Assembly (NCBI GenBank): GCA_029863005.1
Contig: JAOTWF010000001.1
Coordinates: 21,869 to 85,868, forward strand
DNA length: 64,000 nt
From: Gammaproteobacteria bacterium
GTDB lineage: Bacteria > Pseudomonadota > Gammaproteobacteria > Acidiferrobacterales > Sulfurifustaceae
Direction of reading: 5' to 3'
Shown: positions 5,811-32,973 of the stretch, piece after piece
Position numbering within the stretch: position 1 is the stretch's first letter
How the letters are laid out: the number at the start of each line of letters is the position of its first letter
Made by a program: the position numbers and the translations under genes
The notes under the pieces: model-generated
Seen by the model: the letters and a program-made list of their open reading frames with translations, nothing else
Told to the model about the DNA's origin: nothing
Databases searched by the model: none

Positions 5811-7559
5811 ATGTCCACGGACCGTCCCCAACGCAAACTTCACCACGCGCTCGATGCGCTGCGCCTGCGCCTGTCGCGCGCCGAGGCACTGCCGCAGCTG
5901 GCAACCCTCGGCGTGATCTGCGGCCTGCTTACCGGCCTCGTCATCATCGCCTTTCGCCTGCTCATCGAGGTCAGCCAGTCGCTGTTCCTGCCTGGCGCTG
6001 ACCCGGAGAACTACGAAGGCCTCGACATGATGTGGCGTTTCCTTCTGCCGTTCGCGGGCGGGCTGGTGCTCGGGCTCGTGTTCCATTTCCTGCCGAAGGA
6101 GTCGCGCCACGTGGGCGTGGTGCACGTGATGGAACGCCTCTCCTACCACCAGGGCCGATTGCCATTGCGCAACGCGATTGTCCAGTTCCTTGGTGGAGCG
6201 GTGAGCATCATCGCCGGCCACTCTGTCGGCCGCGAGGGTCCGGCTATTCATCTCGGCGCCGCCAGCGGCAGCGTTGCCGGGCGTTACATGGGCCTGCCGA
6301 ACAACAGCCTGCGCGTGCTCGCGGGTTGTGGTGTGGCGGCCGCCATCGCCGCCGCGTTCAACACGCCGCTCGCCGGCGTGGTGTTCGCCATGGAGGTCGT
6401 GATCATGGAATACACCGTGGCCGGGTTCGCCCCGGTGATTCTGGCGGCGGTGAGCGCGACCGCGCTGTCGCAATTCGTGTACGGCTCGGCGCCGGCGTTC
6501 AGCGTGCCGCAGCTGGCACTCGGCTCCCTGTTCGAGCTCCCTTTCATCCTCGCGCTTGGCATGATCATCGGTGCGCTTGCCGCCGCTTTCATCGTGATTA
6601 CGGGCTTCTTCGCCGCGCGCTTCAAGGCCGTTCCAATCTGGGCGCGACTGACCGTGGCCGGCACGATCACCGGCCTGCTGGCGCTTCAGGTGCCGGAAAT
6701 CATGAGCATCGGTTATGACACAGTGAATGCGGCATTGCTCGGACAACTCACCCTCGTCGCGTTGGGCGGCATCGTCATCTTCAAGCTGTTGGCCACCGCC
6801 GCCGGCGTTGGCCTTGGCCTGCCGGGTGGGATGATCGGCCCGGTGCTGGTGCTGGGTGCAGCCGCGGGCGGCCTCCTCGGCATTCTCGGGCAAACACTCG
6901 CGCCGGGCGAGGCCTCCACGCCCGGCCTGTACGCCCTGCTCGGCATGGGCGCGATGATGGCCGGCGCCTTGCAGGCGCCGCTCGCGGCGTTGACCGCGGT
7001 GCTCGAACTGACCGGCAATCCGCACATCATCATGCCCGGCATGCTCGCGGTGATCGCGGCATCGCTCACGGCGCGCGTGGTGTTTCATCAGCCGTCGGTT
7101 TATGTGGTGTTGCTCCGCGGGCGCGGGCTCGATTACCGCAATGATCCCGTGACGCAGTCGCTGCGCCGACTTGGCGTCGGCGGCAGCATGGACGGTAACA
7201 TCACGGTGCTGCCGCGCACGATCGCGCCCGATCGCGCGCAGGCCGAACTGGCGCTCAACCCTGACTGGATCCTGGTGCGCGACGGCGAAAAACTGGTAGC
7301 ACTGCAACCGGCCATGGACCTCGCGCGCGCGCTCAAGGAACAGCCGGAGGCGACGGAACTCGACCTGCTCGCCATCCCGGCGCAACGCAGCCAAGTTGCC
7401 GGCGTGTTGTTGCAGGCGACCCTGCAAGAGGCGCTGGATATACTCAACGCCACTGGCGCCGAAGCGGTTTATGTAAGCGACGACGCCGCCCCGGGCTCGG
7501 AACATGTATACGGAGTTTTGACACGCGAGCGCATCGAGCGCAGTTACCGCTACAGTTAG
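5811..7559 (+). CDS. ClC-family chloride channel/antiporter with C-terminal CBS-like region
   Basis: SVGREGP motif, AAAFNTPLAG, GGMIGP, QAPLAA; about 582 aa with soluble C-terminal tail. Confidence 0.88.
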   Translation: MSTDRPQRKLHHALDALRLRLSRAEALPQLATLGVICGLLTGLVIIAFRLLIEVSQSLFLPGADPENYEGLDMMWRFLLPFAGGLVLGLVFHFLPKESRHVGVVHVMERLSYHQGRLPLRNAIVQFLGGAVSIIAGHSVGREGPAIHLGAASGSVAGRYMGLPNNSLRVLAGCGVAAAIAAAFNTPLAGVVFAMEVVIMEYTVAGFAPVILAAVSATALSQFVYGSAPAFSVPQLALGSLFELPFILALGMIIGALAAAFIVITGFFAARFKAVPIWARLTVAGTITGLLALQVPEIMSIGYDTVNAALLGQLTLVALGGIVIFKLLATAAGVGLGLPGGMIGPVLVLGAAAGGLLGILGQTLAPGEASTPGLYALLGMGAMMAGALQAPLAALTAVLELTGNPHIIMPGMLAVIAASLTARVVFHQPSVYVVLLRGRGLDYRNDPVTQSLRRLGVGGSMDGNITVLPRTIAPDRAQAELALNPDWILVRDGEKLVALQPAMDLARALKEQPEATELDLLAIPAQRSQVAGVLLQATLQEALDILNATGAEAVYVSDDAAPGSEHVYGVLTRERIERSYRYS

Positions 7560-13015: not shown

Positions 13016-13735
13016 CTACATCGACCGCGCCCTGCTCTCTCTTTTCTTCCAGGCCCAATGGCACGCCCAGGCCACGGCGAAGCAGATCCATGCCGTCAGC
13101 AACACGTGCGAAAGAAAATGCGCGCCACGCGCGAGCTGTGTCAGGCCGGTCAGGACACCCAGGGATAAGCTGAAAGCCAGCGTGATACGCGCCTTCGTAA
13201 GATTGACACCGCGCAACGCGATATAAGCGGTGAGCCAGGCGAACCCGGATGCGGCATGCCCGCTCGGGGCGCAGCGACCGGAACCAGGATTCAGCGGCAC
13301 GGCATCGAAGAACCGGAAATATTCAGCGGTTCCTCCATACAGGGTCAATTCCCACGGGCAACTGTGCCCTGACAGTGTGCGCAACGATGAAACTGTGAGC
13401 GCCGCCAGTGGCGCGACCAGTAGCGTAAAACCGGCGGAGCGGTGGTACTGTTGCCACCACGGCCGTCGTCGCAGCCCCAACCAGGCAGCCAGCAGCGCAA
13501 ACCACAATGCCACGCTCAGGTACTTGAGCCCCGAATGCATGATCACCGCCCAAAAAGTCTCATCGCGCAGGGGAAAAGTTCGCGCGGCGGGATCATAGAA
13601 CACCGCCGTAAGCGCATGATCGAGTGGCGTATGGCGCGCGAGGATAAAAATTAGCACCAGACAACCCGCCAGCCACCACAGCTCGCGAAGATTTTGGGAG
13701 ACAGGAGTGGACTGGCGCACGCCGGACGACCGCAT
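13016..13735 (-). CDS. PAP2-family membrane phosphatase, 239 aa
   Basis: HSCPW, PSGHAASG, RGAHFLSH motifs; ATG 13735 overlaps the upstream stop (TGATG). Confidence 0.88.
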   Translation of the reverse strand: MRSSGVRQSTPVSQNLRELWWLAGCLVLIFILARHTPLDHALTAVFYDPAARTFPLRDETFWAVIMHSGLKYLSVALWFALLAAWLGLRRRPWWQQYHRSAGFTLLVAPLAALTVSSLRTLSGHSCPWELTLYGGTAEYFRFFDAVPLNPGSGRCAPSGHAASGFAWLTAYIALRGVNLTKARITLAFSLSLGVLTGLTQLARGAHFLSHVLLTAWICFAVAWACHWAWKKRESRARSM

Positions 13736-15693
13736 CAATAGCCCGGCGCCTTGAGCTTGTGCTGCTTGAACGCCGAAGACGCCGTCTGGTAATACGCGAT
13801 GGCTTCGTCACGCAAGGTCTCGTCTATCGGCGCAGGTGTAGATTCGAATGTCTTCGGGTCAATTTTAAAACTCTCGATTTTCCGTTTCGGCTTGAGCACG
13901 GTGAGGATGTCGCGCTTGTAGTAGCCGAGTGACTGGTAATTGCTGATGAAAGCCCGTTCCCCCATCAGTTCTTGTTCGTGAACTGGATTACCAAAAAAAT
14001 GATCGTCCCCTTCCACCCCGAGTAAGGCAAAGAGCGTCGGGGGCACGTCGATCTGGGAGATCAATCGCGAATAGTGGCCCGGCATGACGATCTTGGGACC
14101 GTAGAGAATGAGCGGGATATGGTATTTCGCCACCGGCAGCTCGGTCTTGCCGGAGACCGAAGCGCAGTGATCGGCAATGATGACGAAAAGGGTATCGCTG
14201 AACCAGGGACGATTGCGCGCCTGCTCGATGAACTGGCCGATGGCATAGTCCGTGTATTTGACCGCGCCTTCGCGCCCGCCGGGCGAGGGAATATCGATGC
14301 GCCCGTCCGGGTAGGTGTAAGGGCGGTGATTGGACGTGGTCATGATCTGCATGAAAAAAGGCTTGCCGTTTTTCTCAGTCTTGTCGAGCAGCGTCAGCGC
14401 ATTGTTGAACAACACCTCGTCGGCCACCCCCCAAACGTTCTCAAAGATCACCGATTCCTTGGGGAACTCGGTGCGATCGAAGGTGACGTAGTCATTCCCG
14501 GCGAAATACGCATTCATGTTGTCAAAATAACCGTATCCGCCGTAAACGAAATAGGTGGCGAATCCCAAATGTTCGAGCAATTCGCCAATCGTGGAGAGAT
14601 GCTCGTTGCTGGGCCGGCGCACGATGGCCTGCCCCGGGACCGGCGGCGTGCCGAGCGACAATGCCTCGAGCCCGCGTACGGTGCGCGTGCCCGAGGCCAG
14701 TACCCGGTCGAATTGAACACCGTGGCGTGCCAGCTCATCAAGCCGGGGGGTCAGGCCCTGGCGCGAGCCGTAACTGCCAAGATATTCGGCGGACAAGCTT
14801 TCCACCGTGATTAATATCACGTGACGGGGACGGCGGAGTAGAAAATCAGGGGTGGGTTCCTGTGCTTCGGGAACCTTGTCCCGATTCTTGAGCACGACCG
14901 AAAGTGGCACACGCTCGACGCCGAGGTCATACAGGATGCGGTCCGCGCGTTCTTGCGGAATCGTCGCATACCAACGCTCGTAATCGAGTTCATTGCGCCG
15001 AAAGGCCGCGGCGAAGGTAAACAGACCGTTCCCGGAAAGCTCTTCAACATAATTGTTGCCGTGGCCGTACATATGGTCGACGTTGGCGAACAGGCCACTG
15101 GCCAGCGGCAGGAGCACGGCGGCCAGCAGCATGTGGCGGCGTGCGCCACGCGCGAGGCGCACGCCGAACGCGCGCGCCAGCGGGCCGCGCAGCGCCCAGG
15201 TCAGCAGCGCGGCCAGCGCCGCCACCGCCAGCAGCAGCGGCATGACCGGATAAGACTCGCGGATGTTGCCGATCACCTCGCGGGTGTACACGAGATAATC
15301 CACCGCGATGAAATTAAAGCGAGTTTCGAACTCGATCCAGAACAGCAGCTCCGCCAGCGCATTGAACAGAAGCGCGGCCGTCACGAACCAGAATACCCCA
15401 TAGCGCACCCAGCGCTGCCAACCGGCCGGGCGCCAGCGATTTCCGAACGCGGCTTCATACAACAGAAAAGGTACCAGCAGGTAGCACAGGGCGGCGACGT
15501 CGAACCACCATCCCACGGCGAGGAAACGCGGCCAGCTGCTCAGCGGCACGCTGTCCATGCCCATATAGAGCGCCAAAATGATTCGGGTGGCGGTGAAAAT
15601 ACCCAGTGCGACCAGTACCAGGAGCGCGACGAACAACAGCAGCCCCTTCTCCGCCAACCTTGAGGGCGTCTCGTGCGGCTTTCCTGGCGTCAT
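13735..15693 (-). CDS. LTA synthase/sulfatase family membrane protein (phosphoglycerol-transferase-like)
   Basis: N-terminal TM bundle; ITVESL, SGTRT (Thr nucleophile), TTSNHRPY, IADH metal-site motifs. Confidence 0.88.
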   Translation of the reverse strand: MTPGKPHETPSRLAEKGLLLFVALLVLVALGIFTATRIILALYMGMDSVPLSSWPRFLAVGWWFDVAALCYLLVPFLLYEAAFGNRWRPAGWQRWVRYGVFWFVTAALLFNALAELLFWIEFETRFNFIAVDYLVYTREVIGNIRESYPVMPLLLAVAALAALLTWALRGPLARAFGVRLARGARRHMLLAAVLLPLASGLFANVDHMYGHGNNYVEELSGNGLFTFAAAFRRNELDYERWYATIPQERADRILYDLGVERVPLSVVLKNRDKVPEAQEPTPDFLLRRPRHVILITVESLSAEYLGSYGSRQGLTPRLDELARHGVQFDRVLASGTRTVRGLEALSLGTPPVPGQAIVRRPSNEHLSTIGELLEHLGFATYFVYGGYGYFDNMNAYFAGNDYVTFDRTEFPKESVIFENVWGVADEVLFNNALTLLDKTEKNGKPFFMQIMTTSNHRPYTYPDGRIDIPSPGGREGAVKYTDYAIGQFIEQARNRPWFSDTLFVIIADHCASVSGKTELPVAKYHIPLILYGPKIVMPGHYSRLISQIDVPPTLFALLGVEGDDHFFGNPVHEQELMGERAFISNYQSLGYYKRDILTVLKPKRKIESFKIDPKTFESTPAPIDETLRDEAIAYYQTASSAFKQHKLKAPGY

Positions 15694-15898: not shown

Positions 15899-18232
15899 CT
15901 AGCGGGTCAGCCCGGCGTACAACATCGGCAACCGCTCCGGCAGGCGGCTGACGTGATCCACCACCATGTAGCCCTTGGGCCCGAAGATGCGCGAGACGTA
16001 ATCGTCGGCGTTGGGATCGAGGGTGAGACAAAAGGTGCGCACCCCGTGCGTTGCCAGCTCCTCGACGGCCTTTTTCGTATCGTGGCGCAGGTATTGCGGG
16101 TCGCGCACGTCTATGTCGGCCGGCTCGCCGTCGGTCACCAGCAGGATGAGTTTTTTCTGTTCCGGTTGCCGGCGTAGGAACGAGGCCGCGTGCCGCAACG
16201 CTCCACCCATGCGCGTGGACAGGCTGCCCTGCATGCCCGCGATCTTGGCCTTGGCCTCGTCACCGTAGTGATCCTCGAAATCCTTGAAGCGGTAGTACTC
16301 CACGTCGTGGCGGCCGTCCGAGGCGAATCCATGGATGGCGAACGGGTCGCCAACGCGATCGATGGCCCAGGACAGCAAGGACGTCGCTTCGCGCGCCAGC
16401 TGCAACACCGGCTTCTCGGAGTCGCCAAGTTTCTCGTTGGTGGATTCGGAAAGATCGAGCAGCACCAGCACCGCCAGATCGCGCACCTTGCGCTCGATGC
16501 GGATGTTAATGCGCGGGTCCGGCGTCTGGCCCAGGCGGATGTCAATCATGGCGCGGATCGCGGCGTTGAGGTCGATCTCCTCGCCGTCTTCCTGGCGCCG
16601 GAAGCGCTGCACGCCCTCGGGCTGCATGGCATCGATGATGTGGCGCAGACGCGAGGCCACCGGCTTGTGCTCGGTAAGAATGCGGTCGATGTCCTCCGGG
16701 TCGCCCTTCTTCGGGCGCTTTTCCAGAACCGTCACCCAGTTGGGACGGTGCAGCTGTACGCCGTAATCCCATTCCTGGTAGTGATACGGCTCGCTGACCG
16801 GTTCCTTGCCTTCCAGCTCGTTGATGGTGCAGCCTTCCTGGTCAAGATAGAACGGCGTGTTGAGCACCCAGATTTCCTGCGCGTCGTCACCGGCCAACTC
16901 GCAGTCGATCTCGTTGGCCATCTCGGTGACCGACACGTATTTGCGCACCTGCTTCGACGCCGGGACATACTCGGCCGCGTGCCAGGCGATCTCGTCCGAA
17001 GCCCAGAGATAGCGGTTGTCGTCGCGATAGGGAATCGCCATGGATTCGAGCACGCGCAGCGACGGGATGGCGCCGCGCTTGCCGAGCTTGTTGTACAGCG
17101 TGACGCCCAGATCCCACGATAGCCGATTGTCCTGTGGACGCTCGGCGAATTCCTCATGAAACTGCGTCACCATTTCCCGGATCAGGCTGTCGTCATCCTG
17201 ATAACTTTCGTCCAGCAACGCGTAGGCCAAACGCTCGAGCAACCCGACCATCGGATCGGTGGAACAACTGACCTCACGCACCTTGTCATGAAACTGGGAC
17301 CACATCTGCTTCATGCCCGGAAATTCCTTGACGGCCAGCGCCTCGACACGCGCGTCCTCGAACAGGCCGATGAGGAACATCTGAGCCGGATTGAGCGCTT
17401 CCATCGACAGCGGCTCGCGCGTATAGACCAGGTGCGCGGCGGCGTGCGCGGCGGTGGCGCGAAACAATTCTTTCCCCGGCAGTCCGGCGAAATCGTCGTA
17501 GGCGTCCGGCAGATGGATGACACGCGCTTCGATGAACGGCTTGTAACCCTCGCGGGTTTCATAATCGCCCGAGGTCGGGCGCATGAAGAAATCCCTTCCC
17601 CAGAAGGCGCGCAGATAAAAATTGAGCTTGCGCTGGTTGTCGATCAGCAGTGTGCCGCGCCGTTCCTTCTGGAGCATGGCCTGGCTGTCGGCGCTCTTGA
17701 GATCGAAATAGGACGTCTGCGCCTGGAAATCTCTCTGGTGTGCCTGCGCACCCCACAGCGCCCAGCGCCGCAGGCCGCCGAGTGTGAGCTTGCCAAACAA
17801 CTCGTCCAGGTGCGACAGCATCGGGCGCAGCCCGCGCGGCGCCTTGGCCGACAACTGGCGGATCAGGCCGAGATAACCGCGCAGCAACTCGGCATCACCC
17901 AATCGTTGCGCCGCGGTTGGAAGAGTATCGAACAACAGCTGGATCACCTCGCCGCTCACCATCGAGGCCAGCTTCATGGACTCGGTGACGCAATCCTTGA
18001 TCACGTCCTCGCCGACCTCTTTCACCACCGCCGGCATTTCCTGGACGTAAGTCGTGACGAGCTCGTTGCCTCGTCCGAGCTGCGACAGCCCTCGCGCGCC
18101 TTCCAGCCAGTTGTGCAGGCCCTGGGGCGACATCACGCGCGCCGCCTCGGTGAAGCTCGCCTCCAGCGTGGCACGGATGTGCGGATCGATCTCCTCGAGG
18201 GTTTCCTTGTAGTCTTTGAGGCTGACGCTCAT
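15899..18232 (-). CDS. cbbO: CbbO, vWA-domain Rubisco activase adaptor
   Basis: 777 aa; MIDAS LDLSES and VTDGEP near the C terminus; downstream of cbbQ. Confidence 0.93.
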   Translation of the reverse strand: MSVSLKDYKETLEEIDPHIRATLEASFTEAARVMSPQGLHNWLEGARGLSQLGRGNELVTTYVQEMPAVVKEVGEDVIKDCVTESMKLASMVSGEVIQLLFDTLPTAAQRLGDAELLRGYLGLIRQLSAKAPRGLRPMLSHLDELFGKLTLGGLRRWALWGAQAHQRDFQAQTSYFDLKSADSQAMLQKERRGTLLIDNQRKLNFYLRAFWGRDFFMRPTSGDYETREGYKPFIEARVIHLPDAYDDFAGLPGKELFRATAAHAAAHLVYTREPLSMEALNPAQMFLIGLFEDARVEALAVKEFPGMKQMWSQFHDKVREVSCSTDPMVGLLERLAYALLDESYQDDDSLIREMVTQFHEEFAERPQDNRLSWDLGVTLYNKLGKRGAIPSLRVLESMAIPYRDDNRYLWASDEIAWHAAEYVPASKQVRKYVSVTEMANEIDCELAGDDAQEIWVLNTPFYLDQEGCTINELEGKEPVSEPYHYQEWDYGVQLHRPNWVTVLEKRPKKGDPEDIDRILTEHKPVASRLRHIIDAMQPEGVQRFRRQEDGEEIDLNAAIRAMIDIRLGQTPDPRINIRIERKVRDLAVLVLLDLSESTNEKLGDSEKPVLQLAREATSLLSWAIDRVGDPFAIHGFASDGRHDVEYYRFKDFEDHYGDEAKAKIAGMQGSLSTRMGGALRHAASFLRRQPEQKKLILLVTDGEPADIDVRDPQYLRHDTKKAVEELATHGVRTFCLTLDPNADDYVSRIFGPKGYMVVDHVSRLPERLPMLYAGLTR

Positions 18233-18234
18233 GG

Positions 18235-18543
18235 TTAGCCTTCTTCCACGTCCATGTCCGGTGACCAGCCCTGCGCGCGCGCGCGTTGTACCGCTTCATT
18301 GTAGATGCGCTCATGGCGCGTCCTCAGCTCGGGCGGCAACTGGCTGGCCAGATGACCATACGGCTCCCAAGCGGCGTGGACCTTTTCGTACAGCTTGTCG
18401 AACTGGGGTGCGCTCCAGCCGGCGCAGGTCTCGGTCTCCGGTAGCAGCCCGAACACCCAGGCGTCACGGATGATGTGCCCGAGATCGGTCATGCCGCCAA
18501 AGAGGTCAGCGTGAATGCCGGGATAGCCAGCACCGCGGTTCAT
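18235..18543 (-). CDS. Small hypothetical protein between cbbQ and cbbO
   Basis: 102 aa; GGGAG RBS; 19 bp after the cbbQ stop and its stop is 2 bp before the cbbO ATG; acidic C terminus DMDVEEG. Confidence 0.75.
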   Translation of the reverse strand: MNRGAGYPGIHADLFGGMTDLGHIIRDAWVFGLLPETETCAGWSAPQFDKLYEKVHAAWEPYGHLASQLPPELRTRHERIYNEAVQRARAQGWSPDMDVEEG

Positions 18544-18562: not shown

Positions 18563-19399
18563 TCAAAAGTAGGTGTTGATGGCGGCGTCGAGCGTGTCGC
18601 GCATGTCCGGATCGTCGGTGATCGGTCGCACCAGCGTCATCTGGCAGGCGGCCTTGGCGTCGATACCGCGCGCGATCAGCTGGCCAGCATAGGCCAGCAA
18701 GCGCGTGGAGATGCCTTCGTCCAGGCCGTGGCCCTTCAAGTTGCGCGCGCGGTGCGCGATCTGCACCAGCTTTTCGGCAACGCTCTTCTCCACCTTGGTT
18801 TCGTGCATGACGATCTCGGCCTCGACTTCGGCCTCGGGGTAATTGAAGTCGATGGCGCCGAAGCGCTGCTTGGTGGACTGTTTCAGGTCCTTCATCAGGC
18901 TCTGGTAACCCGGGTTGTAGGAAATCACCAGCTGGAAATCCTCATGGCAATTCACCGTCTCGCCCTTCTTCTCCAGCGGTAGCTGGCGGCGGTGATCGGT
19001 GAGCGGGTGGATCACCACGGTCGTGTCCTGGCGCGCCTCGACGACCTCGTCGAGATAGCAGATCGCGCCGATGCGCGCGGCCACGGTCAGCGGGCCGTCG
19101 TGCCATTTTGTGCCGCTGGCGTCGAGCAGGTAGCGCCCGACCAGGTCGGAGGCCGTCATGTCTTCGTTGCAGGCCACCGTGATCAGCGGCTTTTTGAGTT
19201 TCCAGGCAATGTATTCGACAAAGCGGCTCTTGCCGCAACCGGTCGGGCCCTTGAGCATCACCGGCATGCGCGCGCTGTAGGCGGCTTCGTACAATTCGAC
19301 TTCATTGGCGACTGGGCGGTAATACGGCTCGCGGGCCACCATGTACTGGGACATATCCAGGGTGTCGTTATGCTTCGCAGCTACGCTTGCTTTGGTCAT
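18563..19399 (-). CDS. cbbQ: CbbQ, MoxR-type AAA+ Rubisco activase, 278 aa
   Basis: Walker A GPTGCGKS, Walker B CYLDE, ISYNPGYQ, DEGISTRLL; GAGGTG RBS before ATG 19399. Confidence 0.95.
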   Translation of the reverse strand: MTKASVAAKHNDTLDMSQYMVAREPYYRPVANEVELYEAAYSARMPVMLKGPTGCGKSRFVEYIAWKLKKPLITVACNEDMTASDLVGRYLLDASGTKWHDGPLTVAARIGAICYLDEVVEARQDTTVVIHPLTDHRRQLPLEKKGETVNCHEDFQLVISYNPGYQSLMKDLKQSTKQRFGAIDFNYPEAEVEAEIVMHETKVEKSVAEKLVQIAHRARNLKGHGLDEGISTRLLAYAGQLIARGIDAKAACQMTLVRPITDDPDMRDTLDAAINTYF

Positions 19400-19426
19400 T
19401 GGTTCATCACCTCGTTCGATGCCTTC

Positions 19427-19464
19427 AACAAAAAACCCCTGCCCGGTTACCCGAGCAGGGGTTT
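19427..19464 (-). terminator. Intrinsic terminator/attenuator between cbbS and cbbQ
   Basis: Minus-strand RNA AAACCCCUGCUCGG-GUAA-CCGGGCAGGGGUUU: 14-bp stem with one G-U, GNRA loop, then a U6 run. Confidence 0.8.
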
Positions 19465-19486
19465 GGTCACCCTTGCCGGGCAAGAA

Positions 19487-19843
19487 TTACTTCATTTTGC
19501 CGCGGTAGATCACCATCGCGGTGCCTTGCGACTGTTTGAAGTTGTCATAGCCGATCAGGCGCACATGGTTGTCCGGGTTGGCTTTGTGGCAGGCCTCGGC
19601 TTCGGCCAGGATCCGATCGACGTTGGTCTCGCCGAACATCGGCAACTTCCACATGTACCAGTAATGGTCGAAGGCGTTCTCCGGCTCAGTATGCTCGATG
19701 GCCGGGTTCCAGCCCTTGCTTACCAGGTACGCCACCTGCTTCTTGATCTCGTCCTGCTTCATCGCCGGCAGGTAGGAGAAGGTTTCGAACTTGCGGCTGG
19801 CGCTGTCCGAGAGACGCGAATTGTAATCTTGCATTTCACTCAT
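19487..19843 (-). CDS. cbbS: Rubisco form I small subunit
   Basis: [27 protein letters not shown] motifs. Confidence 0.97.
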
Positions 19844-19905: not shown

Positions 19906-21336
19906 TTACTTGTGCGCGACGTCGAGCTTGTCGACGGTGTCGAACTCGAACTTGATTTCCTTCCAGGTTTCCATGGCGGCCTTCAGTTCCGGCGAGCTCT
20001 TGGCGGCGTTGGTCAGGATGTCCTTGCCTTCCTTCTCGAGCTGACGGCCCTGGTTGCGCGCCTCGGTACAGGCCTCAAGCGCCACACGGTTGGCGGCCGC
20101 ACCGGCGGCGTTGCCCCACGGATGGCCCAGCGTGCCGCCACCGAACTGCAGGCAGGCGTCGTCGCCGAAGATCGAGACCAGCGCCGGCATGTGCCACACA
20201 TGGATGCCGCCGGAGGCAACCGGGATCACGCCCGGCATGGAGCCCCAGTCCTGATCGAAGAACAGGCCGCGTGAACGATCTTCCTTGATGAAGCTGTCAC
20301 GCATGGTGTCGATCCAGCCCAGCGTCGCCTCGCGATCGCCTTCGAGCTTGCCGACCACGGTACCGGAATGCAGATGGTCGCCGCCCGACAGGCGCAGCGC
20401 CTTGGCCAGCACACGGAAGTGAATGCCGTGATGTGGGTTGCGATCTAGCACGGCGTGCATGGCGCGATGGATGTGCAACAGCATGCCGTTGTCACGGCAC
20501 CAATTGGCCAGGCCCGTATTGGCGGTGAAACCGCCGGTCAGGAAGTCGTGCATGATAATGGGCGCACCCAGGCTCTTGGCGAACTCGGCACGCTTGTACA
20601 TCTCTTCCGGGGTCGGCGCGGTCACGTTCAGGTAATGACCCTTGCGCTCGCCAGTTTCCTTCTCCGCCTTGTGGATCGCTTCCATCACGAACTCGAAGCG
20701 ATGATTCCAGCGCATGAACGGCTGCGAGTTAATGTTCTCGTCGTCCTTGGTGAAGTCGAGACCGCCGCGCAGACACTCATACACGGCGCGACCATAGTTC
20801 TTGGCTGACAGACCGAGCTTCGGCTTGATGGTGCAGCCGAGCAGCGCGCGGCCGTACTTGTTCAGACGGTCACGCTCGACCTGGATGCCGTTCGGCGGAC
20901 CGCCGCAGGTCTTGACGTAGGCGATGGGGAATCGCACGTCCTCGAGGCGCAGCGCGCGCAGGGCCTTGAAGCCGAACACGTTGCCGACCAGCGAGGTAAA
21001 CACGTTGACCACCGAACCCTCTTCGAACAGGTCGATCGGGTAGGCCACGAAGGCATAGAAGCAGGTGTCGTCGCCCGGCACGTCTTCGATGCGGTAGGCG
21101 CGGCCCTTGTAGTGATACAGGTCGGTCAGCAGGTCGGTCCACACCGTGGTCCAGGTGCCGGTGGACGACTCGGCGGCGACGGCGGCGGCCGCTTCTTCAC
21201 GCGGCACGCCGGCCTGCGGGGTGATCTTGAAACAGGCCAGAATGTCGGTATCCAGAACCTTGTAATCGGGTTCCCAATAGGTTTCGCGGTACTCTTTGAC
21301 GCCCGCTTTGTACGTCTTCACGTTGGCTTTGCTCAT
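19906..21336 (-). CDS. cbbL: Rubisco form IA large subunit, 476 aa
   Basis: [11 protein letters not shown] active-site motif, [22 protein letters not shown]; GAGGAG RBS before ATG 21336. Confidence 0.98.
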
Positions 21337-21430
21337 ATGCACTCCTCGTAGGAAATCGTGTGAATTCGGCTATTTCGCCTGTTATTACCCAAGCGTTATG
21401 ACATCTTGGGTATAACCCTACTATCCCCAC

Positions 21431-21502: not shown

Positions 21503-22423
21503 TTGCACCTCACGCTGCGACAACTCAAGGTTTTTGAATCGACGGCGCGCCACCTGAACTACACCCGCGCGGCGGAGGAGCTTTTCCTAACCCAGCCGGC
21601 CGTGTCCATGCAGGTGAAGCAACTGGAGGAGAGTCTCGGGGTCGCACTGTTCGAGCAACTGGGCAAACGCGTCCATCTGACGGAAGCCGGCCAGGAAGTG
21701 CTCACCTACGCGCGTACCGTGACCCAGCAACTGGACGAACTCGAATCGGTCCTGAACAGCCTCAAGGGACTTTCCGGCGGAAAGCTGCGCATCTCGGTCG
21801 CCACCACCGCCAACTACTTCATCCCCATCCTGCTCGGCACCTTCTCGCGCCGTTATCCGGAGGTGACGGTCAGTCTCGATGTCACCAACCGGGAAATACT
21901 GCTCCAGCAGCTTACCGAGAATACCGTCGATCTCGTCATCATGGGCCAGCCCCCGGCCGAGGCCGACGTCGAGGCTGAGGCCTTCATGGAAAACCCACTG
22001 GTCATCGTGGCGCCGCCTGATCACGCGCTGGCGAAGCAGAAAAAAATCCCGCTGAAGCGTCTACAGGATGAGGTCTTCCTGGTTCGCGAACCGGGCTCGG
22101 GCACGCGCAGTGCCATGGAGCGCTTCTTCGCCGAGCGCGAAATTCACCTGAAAACCGGCATGGAAGTCGGCAGCAACGAGGCCATCAAACAAAGCGTGCA
22201 GGCAGGCCTGGGGCTGGGGCTGCTGTCACGCGCCACGATCGGGCAGGAGCTGGAGCTGAAACGGTTGGTGGAACTGGACGTTGCCGAGTTTCCCATCATG
22301 CGTCACTGGTACGTGGTACATCGGAAAGGTAAGCGCCTGTCGGCCGCGGCCGAAAAATACAAGGATTTCATGCTGAAGGAGGCCCGGACCCTGATGGGCA
22401 AAAAAGCCGGGGAAAGTCGGTAA
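21503..22423 (+). CDS. cbbR: LysR-type regulator CbbR
   Basis: LTLRQLKVF...LNYTRAAEELFLTQPAVSMQVKQLE HTH; REPGSGTR; divergent from cbbL; TTG start. Confidence 0.93.
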   Translation: MHLTLRQLKVFESTARHLNYTRAAEELFLTQPAVSMQVKQLEESLGVALFEQLGKRVHLTEAGQEVLTYARTVTQQLDELESVLNSLKGLSGGKLRISVATTANYFIPILLGTFSRRYPEVTVSLDVTNREILLQQLTENTVDLVIMGQPPAEADVEAEAFMENPLVIVAPPDHALAKQKKIPLKRLQDEVFLVREPGSGTRSAMERFFAEREIHLKTGMEVGSNEAIKQSVQAGLGLGLLSRATIGQELELKRLVELDVAEFPIMRHWYVVHRKGKRLSAAAEKYKDFMLKEARTLMGKKAGESR

Positions 22424-31750: not shown

Positions 31751-32560
31751 TTAAGGTGATTTCCAGTTTTCGTCGATCCAGGTCTTCCATTGCTTAAACA
31801 GTGCGGGCGAAGCCGCCGCGACCACGGACCGGGGTTCGAGACCGTAGGTAAAAATCTTTTCACCGTCGAGCGTGGTCATCATGCCTCCCGCTTCGGACAA
31901 TATCAGGCTGCCGGCGGCGTAATCCCACAGTTTCTGCCCTCCGTGCAGATAAATATGAAAGCGGCCATCTGCCAGCCAGCACCATTCAAGACTGCTGGCA
32001 CCAAAATTGCGCTGCGAGCCGTAAGGGGGAAACGCGCCAAGTTGCGCCGCCAGCGGTGCCTCCAGCCGTTTGAAATCCACTGACGCCACACAGCGTGACA
32101 ACATCTCTGGCAGAGGCGGCTCGTACGCACCCAGGGTCATGTCGTTCAACCTCGCTCCCTGACCACGCTGCGCCATAAAACATTCGTCGCGCACCGGATC
32201 GTAAATCAAGCCGAGCTCTTGGCGGCCATTTATGATGAGTGCCAGCGAAACTGCAAAATACGGGATACCGGTGGCGAAATTGCTGGTGCCATCCAGGGGG
32301 TCCACGCACCACAAACCTTTATCCTGGTCGAGGGTCAGCTGCTCGTGCTCGTGCCCGGGCATTTCTTCGCCGAGGAAATCGTATTCCGGCCAGAAGCGCG
32401 CGAGATCGGTTTTCAGGCGCCGCTGCATGGACACGTCGGCTTCAGTCACCACGCTGCCATCGTGCTTGATATGGCGAATGACGTCCGCGAACAACGGCAT
32501 CAGCTCCTCGCGCGCAGCGGTGCTGACCAACTCGCGCAACTGAGGGAGCGACGGAAGCAT
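31751..32560 (-). CDS. Inositol monophosphatase (FIG superfamily) protein
   Basis: VTEAD, GEE, WCVDPLDGTSNF, LWDYAAG motifs. Confidence 0.92.
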   Translation of the reverse strand: MLPSLPQLRELVSTAAREELMPLFADVIRHIKHDGSVVTEADVSMQRRLKTDLARFWPEYDFLGEEMPGHEHEQLTLDQDKGLWCVDPLDGTSNFATGIPYFAVSLALIINGRQELGLIYDPVRDECFMAQRGQGARLNDMTLGAYEPPLPEMLSRCVASVDFKRLEAPLAAQLGAFPPYGSQRNFGASSLEWCWLADGRFHIYLHGGQKLWDYAAGSLILSEAGGMMTTLDGEKIFTYGLEPRSVVAAASPALFKQWKTWIDENWKSP

Positions 32561-32973
32561 CAGCGAATTATTCCGTCCAGTTTTAGGATTCGCGCCGGGC
32601 CCACGTACACCTGCTTTTGTTCGAGATCGCGCAAGGCATTGAGAAATTCCATTTGTGCCCGGCGCATGATCTCCGCGGCAGCCAACGTGTAATACACCGC
32701 CTCGTAGGAAACCGATTCTTCCAGAGATGCCCGGACTTGCGGCGCGAAAGACTGCCAGGCGAGTTCGATGTTTCGCCGGCCTTCACGGTCCACGAAGATG
32801 AATTCTGCGTCATCCAGAACCGCCAAGACTTGCAAGTTGCGAAGGGGCACGAACAGGCAACCGTGGCTAGCGCGTTTCAACAACACACGCGAGAGATTGT
32901 AGACTTCAGCCGGCAATGTACGCCGTTCGCGTGATATTTCCGTTGGGCGGTAAAAAGTCTCTTCAATGATCAT
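32560..32973 (-). CDS. Hypothetical protein
   Basis: 137 aa; stop overlaps the IMPase ATG (TGATG), indicating a coupled gene; no family recognised. Confidence 0.7.
   Translation of the reverse strand: MIIEETFYRPTEISRERRTLPAEVYNLSRVLLKRASHGCLFVPLRNLQVLAVLDDAEFIFVDREGRRNIELAWQSFAPQVRASLEESVSYEAVYYTLAAAEIMRRAQMEFLNALRDLEQKQVYVGPARILKLDGIIR

Follow-up and report, generated by a model that had tools for sequence, protein, structure and literature searches.

The DNA analysed here is a stretch of 64,000 nucleotides (the window) from a gammaproteobacterium of the order Acidiferrobacterales. It carries a Rubisco gene cluster in the order cbbL-cbbS-cbbQ-X-cbbO, with a divergent cbbR and with no carboxysome genes in the cluster. 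The gene for the form IA large subunit, cbbL (19906..21342, reverse strand), matches Pfam RuBisCO_large (2.7e-138) and NCBIfam NF003252 (1e-241), and shares 85-97% identity with cbbL from other cbbLSQO loci. The small-subunit gene cbbS (19487..19843, reverse strand) matches Pfam RuBisCO_small (3.1e-39). Next comes cbbQ, which encodes the AAA+ MoxR-type ATPase of the Rubisco activase (longest ORF 18563..19483, reverse strand; Pfam AAA_5, 1.4e-32; CbbQ_C, 1.5e-33). The last gene, cbbO (15899..18232, reverse strand), encodes the activase adaptor, with a C-terminal Pfam VWA domain (residues 588-752); orthologues elsewhere align along the whole protein with 55-65% identity. The LysR-type regulator gene cbbR (21503..22423, forward strand) has the Pfam domains HTH_1 and LysR_substrate. 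Between cbbQ and cbbO lies an ORF running from ATG to TAA (18235..18543, reverse strand), whose translation, P0001, is 102 residues long. We refer to this conserved orphan gene and its product as X. Directly 3' of cbbO, at 13016-15693 on the reverse strand, are a sulfatase/EptA-like gene of the phosphoethanolamine-transferase type and a PAP2 lipid A phosphatase-like gene, a pair that is found in the same place in a congeneric genome, G563.

The spacing around X is tight. The stop codon of cbbQ (TGA, 18563-18565) stands 19 nt upstream of the X ATG, the motif GGGAG is found 11 nt 5' of that ATG, and the TAA of X is separated from the ATG of cbbO by 2 nt. These positions agree with the original prediction, which described a 102-residue ORF with its own ribosome-binding site and with gaps of 19 nt to cbbQ upstream and 2 nt to cbbO downstream. 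With such gaps, and with no terminator detected between cbbQ, X and cbbO in a terminator scan, the proposed co-expression of X with its two neighbors is plausible. A consensus scan did identify a terminator-like or attenuator-like hairpin between cbbS and cbbQ (19433..19464, reverse strand), with a 14-bp stem that includes 9 G-C pairs and with a T-rich tail. This hairpin is located within the 5' extension of the longest cbbQ ORF, and the true start of cbbQ is probably the Met at about 19399. Because the hairpin stands between cbbS and this probable start, the layout suggests that cbbLS is expressed at a high level and that cbbQ-X-cbbO forms a lower-expressed read-through segment. The terminator scan of two loci in which X is inserted between cbbS and cbbQ revealed no hairpin.

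X belongs to a conserved family. We found 1036 homologues at E<=1e-3, all about 100 residues long, with 60-91% identity among the best 120; the closest named homologue is that of a Sulfuricaulis sp., at 91% identity. The database name is 'hypothetical protein' for every homologue shown, cluster members and the copy of Nitrobacter included. In a search without a word index among 1.8 billion cluster representatives, the family comprised 142 clusters at 50% identity, and no larger or more distant family around X was found among those representatives. A scan of one genome per species placed relatives of X in at least 576 species. The hosts include Acidiferrobacterales, Chromatiaceae, Ectothiorhodospira, Thioalkalivibrio, Nitrosomonas and Thioploca/Thiomargarita, as well as symbionts of Solemya and of nematodes and metagenome-assembled genomes (MAGs) of Betaproteobacteria. 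Against seven relatives, the dN/dS of X ranges from 0.05 to 0.35, a pattern indicative of purifying selection on the family. X is far beyond a chance ORF, because of its 1036 homologues, its 142 clusters and these dN/dS values; it is confirmed as a real gene of a conserved family. Copies that appear to be decaying were also observed: one beside cbbO (G499:C159:2350-2627) is split by a TAG, and an extra fragment in another genome (G552:C16:60008-60208) likewise contains a TAG.

The X protein of the window contains 4 Trp, 5 His and 1 Cys, has a pI of 5.2 and ends in the tail PDMDVEEG. The family as a whole is acidic, its median pI being 5.0; its members contain about four Trp and a single Cys, and its disordered acidic C-terminus is conserved. 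About 35 positions are conserved at 90% or more. In the N-terminal part these include Y7, G9, D13, G16-G17-M18 and R26-D27-A28-W29-V30-F31-G32, and in the remainder P35-E36-x-E38-x-C40-x-G42-W43, W59, R76-H77-x-R79-I80 and G92-W93. An AlphaFold2 model based on 94 sequences (pLDDT 84, pTM 0.72) predicts an extended, conserved N-terminal stretch, three helices (residues 20-31, 45-62 and 71-90) and a disordered acidic tail. The initial description of X as a helical protein rich in Trp and His, with a single Cys and an acidic tail, is borne out by this composition and by the three-helix model. The redox partner that had been considered along with it was rejected: there is one nearly invariant Cys only, with no CxxC motif and no thioredoxin-like fold.

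Comparisons with known domains and structures were largely uninformative. X has no match in Pfam or NCBIfam at E<=0.01, and neither an AAA+ MoxR domain (PF07728/PF08406) nor a VWA/MIDAS domain was detected in P0001 with these two libraries at that threshold. The profile of 94 sequences matched no PDB chain at E<0.49. A Foldseek search of the PDB with the X model provided no informative fold (best E 0.94), and an exhaustive VIA-align search reached a Z-score of 3.3 at best, with no Rubisco chaperone among the top 50. The ESM Atlas returned solely the unnamed family of X itself. No similarity was found by hhalign between the X profile and either CbbO or a second orphan protein, Y, described below. 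Among longer forms of X there was one domainless protein of 274 residues; since this sole long form is probably a mis-called start, X has no Rosetta-stone fusion.

To survey the gene neighborhood of X, the Cbb proteins of the window were placed by tblastn in 125 X loci, with flanks of 1.5-6 kb. X lies between cbbQ and cbbO in 9 of these loci, those of the closest relatives; between cbbS and cbbQ in 6, all in family f41 of another class; and directly 3' of cbbO in 21. In a further 13 it is near cbb genes in other layouts, among them loci in which X converges with cbbLSQO, diverges from cbbL or stands upstream of cbbM-cbbQ-cbbO. The three slots within cbbLSQO suggest, as far as gene order can tell, repeated rearrangement without loss of linkage, and the tight operon positions span Zeta-, Beta- and Gammaproteobacteria. 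One locus in which X lies between cbbQ and cbbO is on a contig binned as 'Candidatus Methylomirabilis sp.' (L018, DASPRK010000201.1); its cbbR/cbbL-S-Q-X-O cluster has 80-90% protein identity to that of the window, which points to mis-binning or recent transfer.

Overall, X stands between or beside cbbQ and cbbO, with gaps of 2-40 nt, in 36 of the 125 loci. This proximity favors the possibility that the CbbQ6-CbbO activase has X as a third component or as a regulator. X would then bind CbbO or CbbQ, for instance with its acidic tail presented to the MIDAS site of CbbO, and would modulate the ATPase or the engagement of clients. The conserved, disordered acidic C-terminus of the family is in line with such a role, as is the position of X directly after cbbO in 11 of the 30 Nitrosomonadaceae genomes that have X (in the remaining ones the two genes are separated by 2 kb to 1.6 Mb or are on different contigs). 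The absence of any fusion of X to CbbQ or CbbO counts against it, as does biochemistry: the activity of the CbbQO of A. ferrooxidans has reportedly been reconstituted from its purified components, with no third protein.

In the other 76 of the 125 loci, no cbb gene is present within the examined flank of 1.5-6 kb. The original prediction had held that homologues occurring mostly outside cbb loci would refute a role with the activase or Rubisco. In terms of linkage that is the case, yet form IA CbbL or its CbbO is encoded elsewhere in every one of ten tested genomes with X unlinked to cbb genes. Gene linkage alone is misleading for X, because its genome-wide co-occurrence ties it to form IA Rubisco.

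Plasmid 1 of Nitrobacter hamburgensis X14 provides an example of X at the border of a larger cluster. There, X (NHAM_RS22080) is found at the edge of an island (L135, NC_007959.1:262000-293000) that comprises two identical operons for the DAB carbon pump with P-II genes, a cbbR, a full alpha-carboxysome operon, a PCD-like gene, parA and cbbQ-cbbO. The plasmid is mobilizable, and IS110 elements and a VapC toxin gene adjoin the X island. Such surroundings would suit a passenger, that is, a protein with an unrelated housekeeping or stress role that travels on islands for form IA autotrophy, and the same can be said of the majority of X loci that do not adjoin cbb genes and of the many form IA genomes that lack X. 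This explanation is nonetheless very unlikely in our view, given the strong purifying selection that the dN/dS values indicate, the tight operon positions in three slots and three proteobacterial classes, and the distribution of X across genomes, which we turn to now.

We analyzed the co-occurrence of X and form IA Rubisco in four samples of genomes. In a sample of the phylum (401 genomes), in which form IA CbbL was called at 80% identity or more, X was detected in 15 genomes besides that of the window, and form IA CbbL in all 15. X was found in none of the 18 form IC genomes of this sample, nor, at E<=1e-26, in any of the remaining genomes; it was likewise not seen in searched genomes with no form I Rubisco, which argues against a passenger. 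A match in G310 (1.8e-4, inside a frame of 479 residues) was taken as spurious. Among 61 Nitrosomonadaceae genomes, X is present in 30, all of which have form IA and the same 30 of which have a full-length, close CbbO, although this split may reflect a single genus-level event. Among 71 Chromatiaceae genomes, X is present in 52, and form IA CbbL was found in 48 of these 52, against 2 of the 19 genomes that lack X. In the order to which the window belongs (101 genomes), X is present in 37, and form IA CbbL was found in 33 of them; the completeness of the other four is 71-97%. The counts in these four samples (15/15, 30/30, 48/52 and 33/37) are not phylogenetically independent, and are inflated within families by shared ancestry.

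The presence of X, then, goes with form IA Rubisco in the genome, and the reverse does not hold. In the window's own order, X is missing from 28 of the 61 genomes with form IA, among them all 18 such genomes of family f93, and in the phylum sample G136, which is 100% complete, has form IA and no X. A profile search found no X in G561, G572, G136, G563 or G533. Many of the sampled genomes are MAGs, and absences apply to the genomes searched. Within these bounds, the X family is confined almost to bacteria with form IA Rubisco.

The same distribution bears on a further possibility, namely that X is a small regulator of the cbb/CCM regulon, either a partner of CbbR or an element of CO2/redox signalling, and would act on expression. 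X often lies apart from the cbb genes in the same genomes, and it is divergent from cbbL at one locus (L048) and from the DAB/cbbR island of the Nitrobacter plasmid. In a MAG of Thiohalomonas denitrificans (L061), it has cbbR on one side and a form II cbbM-cbbQ-cbbO operon on the other. X is single-copy even in genomes with two or three Rubiscos, and it has one nearly invariant Cys. Nevertheless, we regard this possibility as quite unlikely: X is acidic, the fold comparisons revealed no helix-turn-helix and no DNA-binding fold of another kind, the Pfam scan gave no regulatory domain, and CbbR-controlled form IC and form II regulons lack X. At the L061 locus, two copies of X are located 5 kb apart (885-1166 and 6001-6291), with 42% and 62% identity to P0001, respectively; the second is the one next to the form II operon. 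This genome also contains form IA CbbL fragments at contig ends.

To determine whether X is tied to the activase or to Rubisco, it is most instructive to consider genomes that have one and not the other. A close CbbO is absent in 16 of the 52 Chromatiaceae genomes with X. In at least five of these that are large and contiguous, the search for CbbO yields NorD-like VWA proteins only, and X is intact; each of these genomes has a single form IA CbbL, with 82-83% identity. This CbbL subtype is alpha-carboxysomal in two genomes. In one (G497) the order is cbbL-cbbS-csoS2-csoSCA, and in the other (G509) X stands directly upstream of cbbL-cbbS-csoS2-csoSCA-csoS4-BMC. Conversely, full-length CbbO is found with no X in G561, G572 and G567, all of family f93, and in G136; the cluster of G561 reads cbbL-cbbS-csoS2-csoSCA...cbbO. 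In addition, more than 100 genomes have only a second, distant type of CbbO (about 50% identity, in the C-terminal third), which we infer to be linked to form II, and these have no X.

X and CbbQO are therefore separable, since X occurs without CbbO in Chromatiaceae, and CbbO without X in f93, in G136 and in the genomes with the second type. Thus, we conclude that X is not an obligate subunit of the activase, i.e., it is not a fixed third part of this repair machine. The Chromatiaceae and the own-order samples also rule out the notion, considered at one stage, of a strict co-occurrence of X with an 'IAq-type' CbbO. Of the partnership with activase or Rubisco originally put forward, the tie to Rubisco stands, by co-occurrence with form IA, and a role as a fixed component of CbbQO is not supported.

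The window's own order provides evidence that is more favorable to the activase. There, X is present in 29 of the 31 genomes with a CbbL of the cbbLSQO type (aligned to the last residue, 88-97% identical), and it is missing, except in G541, from genomes with the carboxysomal subtype alone. G563, a congener that is 99% complete, has a syntenic locus (L137, G563:C5:158000-174000), with the order fba...cbbR-cbbL-cbbS...sulfatase-PAP2 and a sulfatase that is 90% identical. In this locus cbbQ, X and cbbO are missing as one block, and neither X nor CbbO was found elsewhere in the genome. The cbbS of G563 is just 64% identical, which suggests that its Rubisco genes were replaced. The loss of the block fits a link to the activase as well as one to Rubisco, and it counts in favor of the original prediction; the 76 loci with no cbb gene in the flank count against X as a fixed component of the activase. 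In light of the genomes in which X and CbbO occur separately, we consider it unlikely that X is a component or regulator of the activase.

Taken together, these data lead us to propose, with a probability of roughly 0.45, that X assists proteobacterial form IA Rubisco as a dispensable accessory, acting on the enzyme itself and not as a subunit of CbbQO. X would be a stand-alone, soluble, acidic protein of about 11.5 kDa, serving above all the non-carboxysomal form IA enzymes of the cbbLSQO type. Here it would probably be made from the cbbQ-X-cbbO read-through segment, at levels similar to those of the activase. It may act on the Rubisco holoenzyme, on its assembly, stability or activation state, and would work alongside CbbQO, outside its structure. 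The contact surface would probably include helix 1 and the invariant loop at the N-terminus (Y-x-G...GGM...RDAWVFG..PExExCxGW). Both Rubisco as the partner of X and the kind of help given are inferences.

In support of this accessory role, we count the fact that X predicts form IA in the four samples, the presence of form IA or its CbbO in genomes with unlinked X, the three slots in cbbLSQO, and the retention of X in carboxysome-only Chromatiaceae that lack CbbO. The location at the edge of the Nitrobacter island with its DAB, alpha-carboxysome and cbbQO genes would also fit, as would the hairpin after cbbS. Against it, we count the form IA enzymes that occur without X in the 28 own-order genomes, the block loss in G563, which is equally compatible with an activase link, the inflation of co-occurrence by shared ancestry, and a fold with no informative match. 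It is also the case that form IA enzymes assemble in E. coli without X.

X resembles several elements of known systems. The operon of Nitrosomonas is said to be cbbLSQON, and its last gene, cbbN, would be like X in encoding about 100 residues. It reportedly follows cbbO directly, the slot that X takes in those 11 Nitrosomonadaceae, whereas X of the window is between cbbQ and cbbO. To our knowledge, no function has ever been assigned to cbbN. The form IAq cluster of Sideroxydans lithotrophicus ES-1 (Slit_0985-0989) has as its fifth gene a 'small (100aa) hypothetical protein' (Emerson et al. 2013, PMC3770913), to which that paper devotes one sentence, with no analysis of distribution or function. 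As in the loci where X follows cbbO or lies between cbbQ and cbbO, this ORF of about 100 residues belongs to a carboxysome-less cluster of cbbL, cbbS, cbbQ and cbbO. Judged by size and context, it would be a homologue of X, and an ORF of the X type would thus have been noticed in print already. X of the window has the layout common to cbbN and the Slit gene, namely an ORF of about 100 residues that adjoins cbbQ/cbbO, in the same orientation, within a cbbLS cluster without carboxysome genes. We also considered 'orf06' of Böhnke and Perner as a lead to X, and set it aside, as it is described as not necessarily near the cluster.

Among Rubisco chaperones, RbcX, the form IB assembly chaperone, is like X small, helical, acidic, encoded in a Rubisco operon, specific to one form of Rubisco and dispensable in some hosts. 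However, X matches no Pfam family, that of RbcX included, and has no match among PDB sequences and no informative fold match. The fold of RbcX is a four-helix-bundle dimer; the X model, computed as a monomer, has three helices and an extended N-terminal loop. The gene for RbcX lies between those of the large and small subunits, whereas X of the window is downstream of cbbS. acRAF/Raf2 is, like X, encoded by a small accessory gene that accompanies form IA Rubisco, and both are found in the Nitrobacter plasmid island. The former is a PCD-like (pterin-4a-carbinolamine dehydratase-like) protein of alpha-carboxysome operons, whereas X has no Pfam match; because both are present in one island, X is no substitute for acRAF. 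The CbbQ-CbbO activase (Tsai et al. 2015, PMC4660213) shares its operon with X and is probably co-transcribed with it, but X lacks the AAA+ and VWA domains; an activase structure, PDB 6L1Q, is cited in 10.64898/2026.01.22.701106.

Many bacteria that oxidise sulfur, iron or ammonia fix CO2 with form IA Rubisco, which also works in symbionts and in alpha-carboxysomes, and the enzyme is employed in attempts to reconstruct carbon fixation in E. coli, yeast and plants. CbbQO, acRAF and CsoS2 are the recognised helpers of this form. With its strong conservation, its near-exclusive occurrence with form IA and its three operon positions, X is an obvious candidate for a further one, and the question has become narrower now that an obligate place in the activase is set aside. 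Should X improve the yield or activity of form IA enzymes, it would be of use in engineering; should it have no measurable effect, the tight association with form IA would still need explaining. Tractable systems in which to study X are Chromatiaceae, Nitrosomonas, Sideroxydans ES-1, plasmid 1 of Nitrobacter hamburgensis and possibly Methylococcus capsulatus, through MCA2745. In M. capsulatus Bath, cbbLS corresponds to MCA2743-44 and cbbQ to MCA2746, Rubisco is essential, and a genome-wide CRISPRi screen exists (PMC13108547). Since MCA2744 is cbbS and MCA2746 is cbbQ, MCA2745 occupies the slot between cbbS and cbbQ, and is possibly a homologue of X.

The commonest neighbor of X is a second family of orphan proteins, Y, of 135-165 residues, whose gene is located at the 3' end of X in 30 loci (e.g., L078:6285-6776:+ and L059:5608-6012:-). 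Y is co-oriented with X in Chromatiaceae and convergent with it in Nitrosomonas, and has no match in Pfam or NCBIfam. In the window, Y encodes 137 residues (32560..32973, reverse strand; identified as an ORF by a match in the window's own genome). It lies at a distance of 14 kb from X, flanked by a Trx/peroxiredoxin-like gene and a SuhB/IMPase-like gene, and is 45% identical to the Nitrosomonas Y that adjoins X. The AlphaFold2 model of Y has a pLDDT of 88; its best match is an Atp11 assembly-factor domain (Z 6.7, 110 residues), and its second is Aha1 (Z 4.5). The resemblance of the modeled Y to the Atp11 fold is only a lead, because a Z-score of 6.7 is below the safe level for fold identity.

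The SuhB/IMPase-type phosphatase gene beside Y in the window could be taken to indicate that X binds, or helps to clear, inhibitory sugar bisphosphates that arise from Rubisco misfire, in the manner of CbbY or of the CA1P phosphatases that act downstream of other activases. Recurrent neighbors of X include HAD and NUDIX hydrolases (5 loci each), and the invariant D13, D27, E36, E38, C40 and H77 could form a ligand or metal site. However, these hydrolases are neighbors in a few lineages only, and a protein of 100 residues and three helices with no match to an enzyme fold is an unlikely catalyst. This function for X is, in our estimation, highly improbable.

X and Y are also found in the same genomes. 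Of the 61 Nitrosomonadaceae genomes, the 30 that have X are also those that have Y; among the Chromatiaceae, Y was found in 31 genomes, all of which have X and 28 of which also have CbbO. It is conceivable, if unlikely, that X, often together with Y, constitutes an unrecognised system for the maintenance or assembly of proteobacterial form IA Rubisco in particular, a counterpart of RbcX/Raf1 in form IB, in which X would bind the holoenzyme and Y would be a chaperone-like partner. In two carboxysome-only Chromatiaceae genomes, Y is reduced to a fragment or has an internal stop, and X is intact. In the carboxysome-only genome G524, Y is located at G524:C34:13362-13664 and contains an internal TGA.
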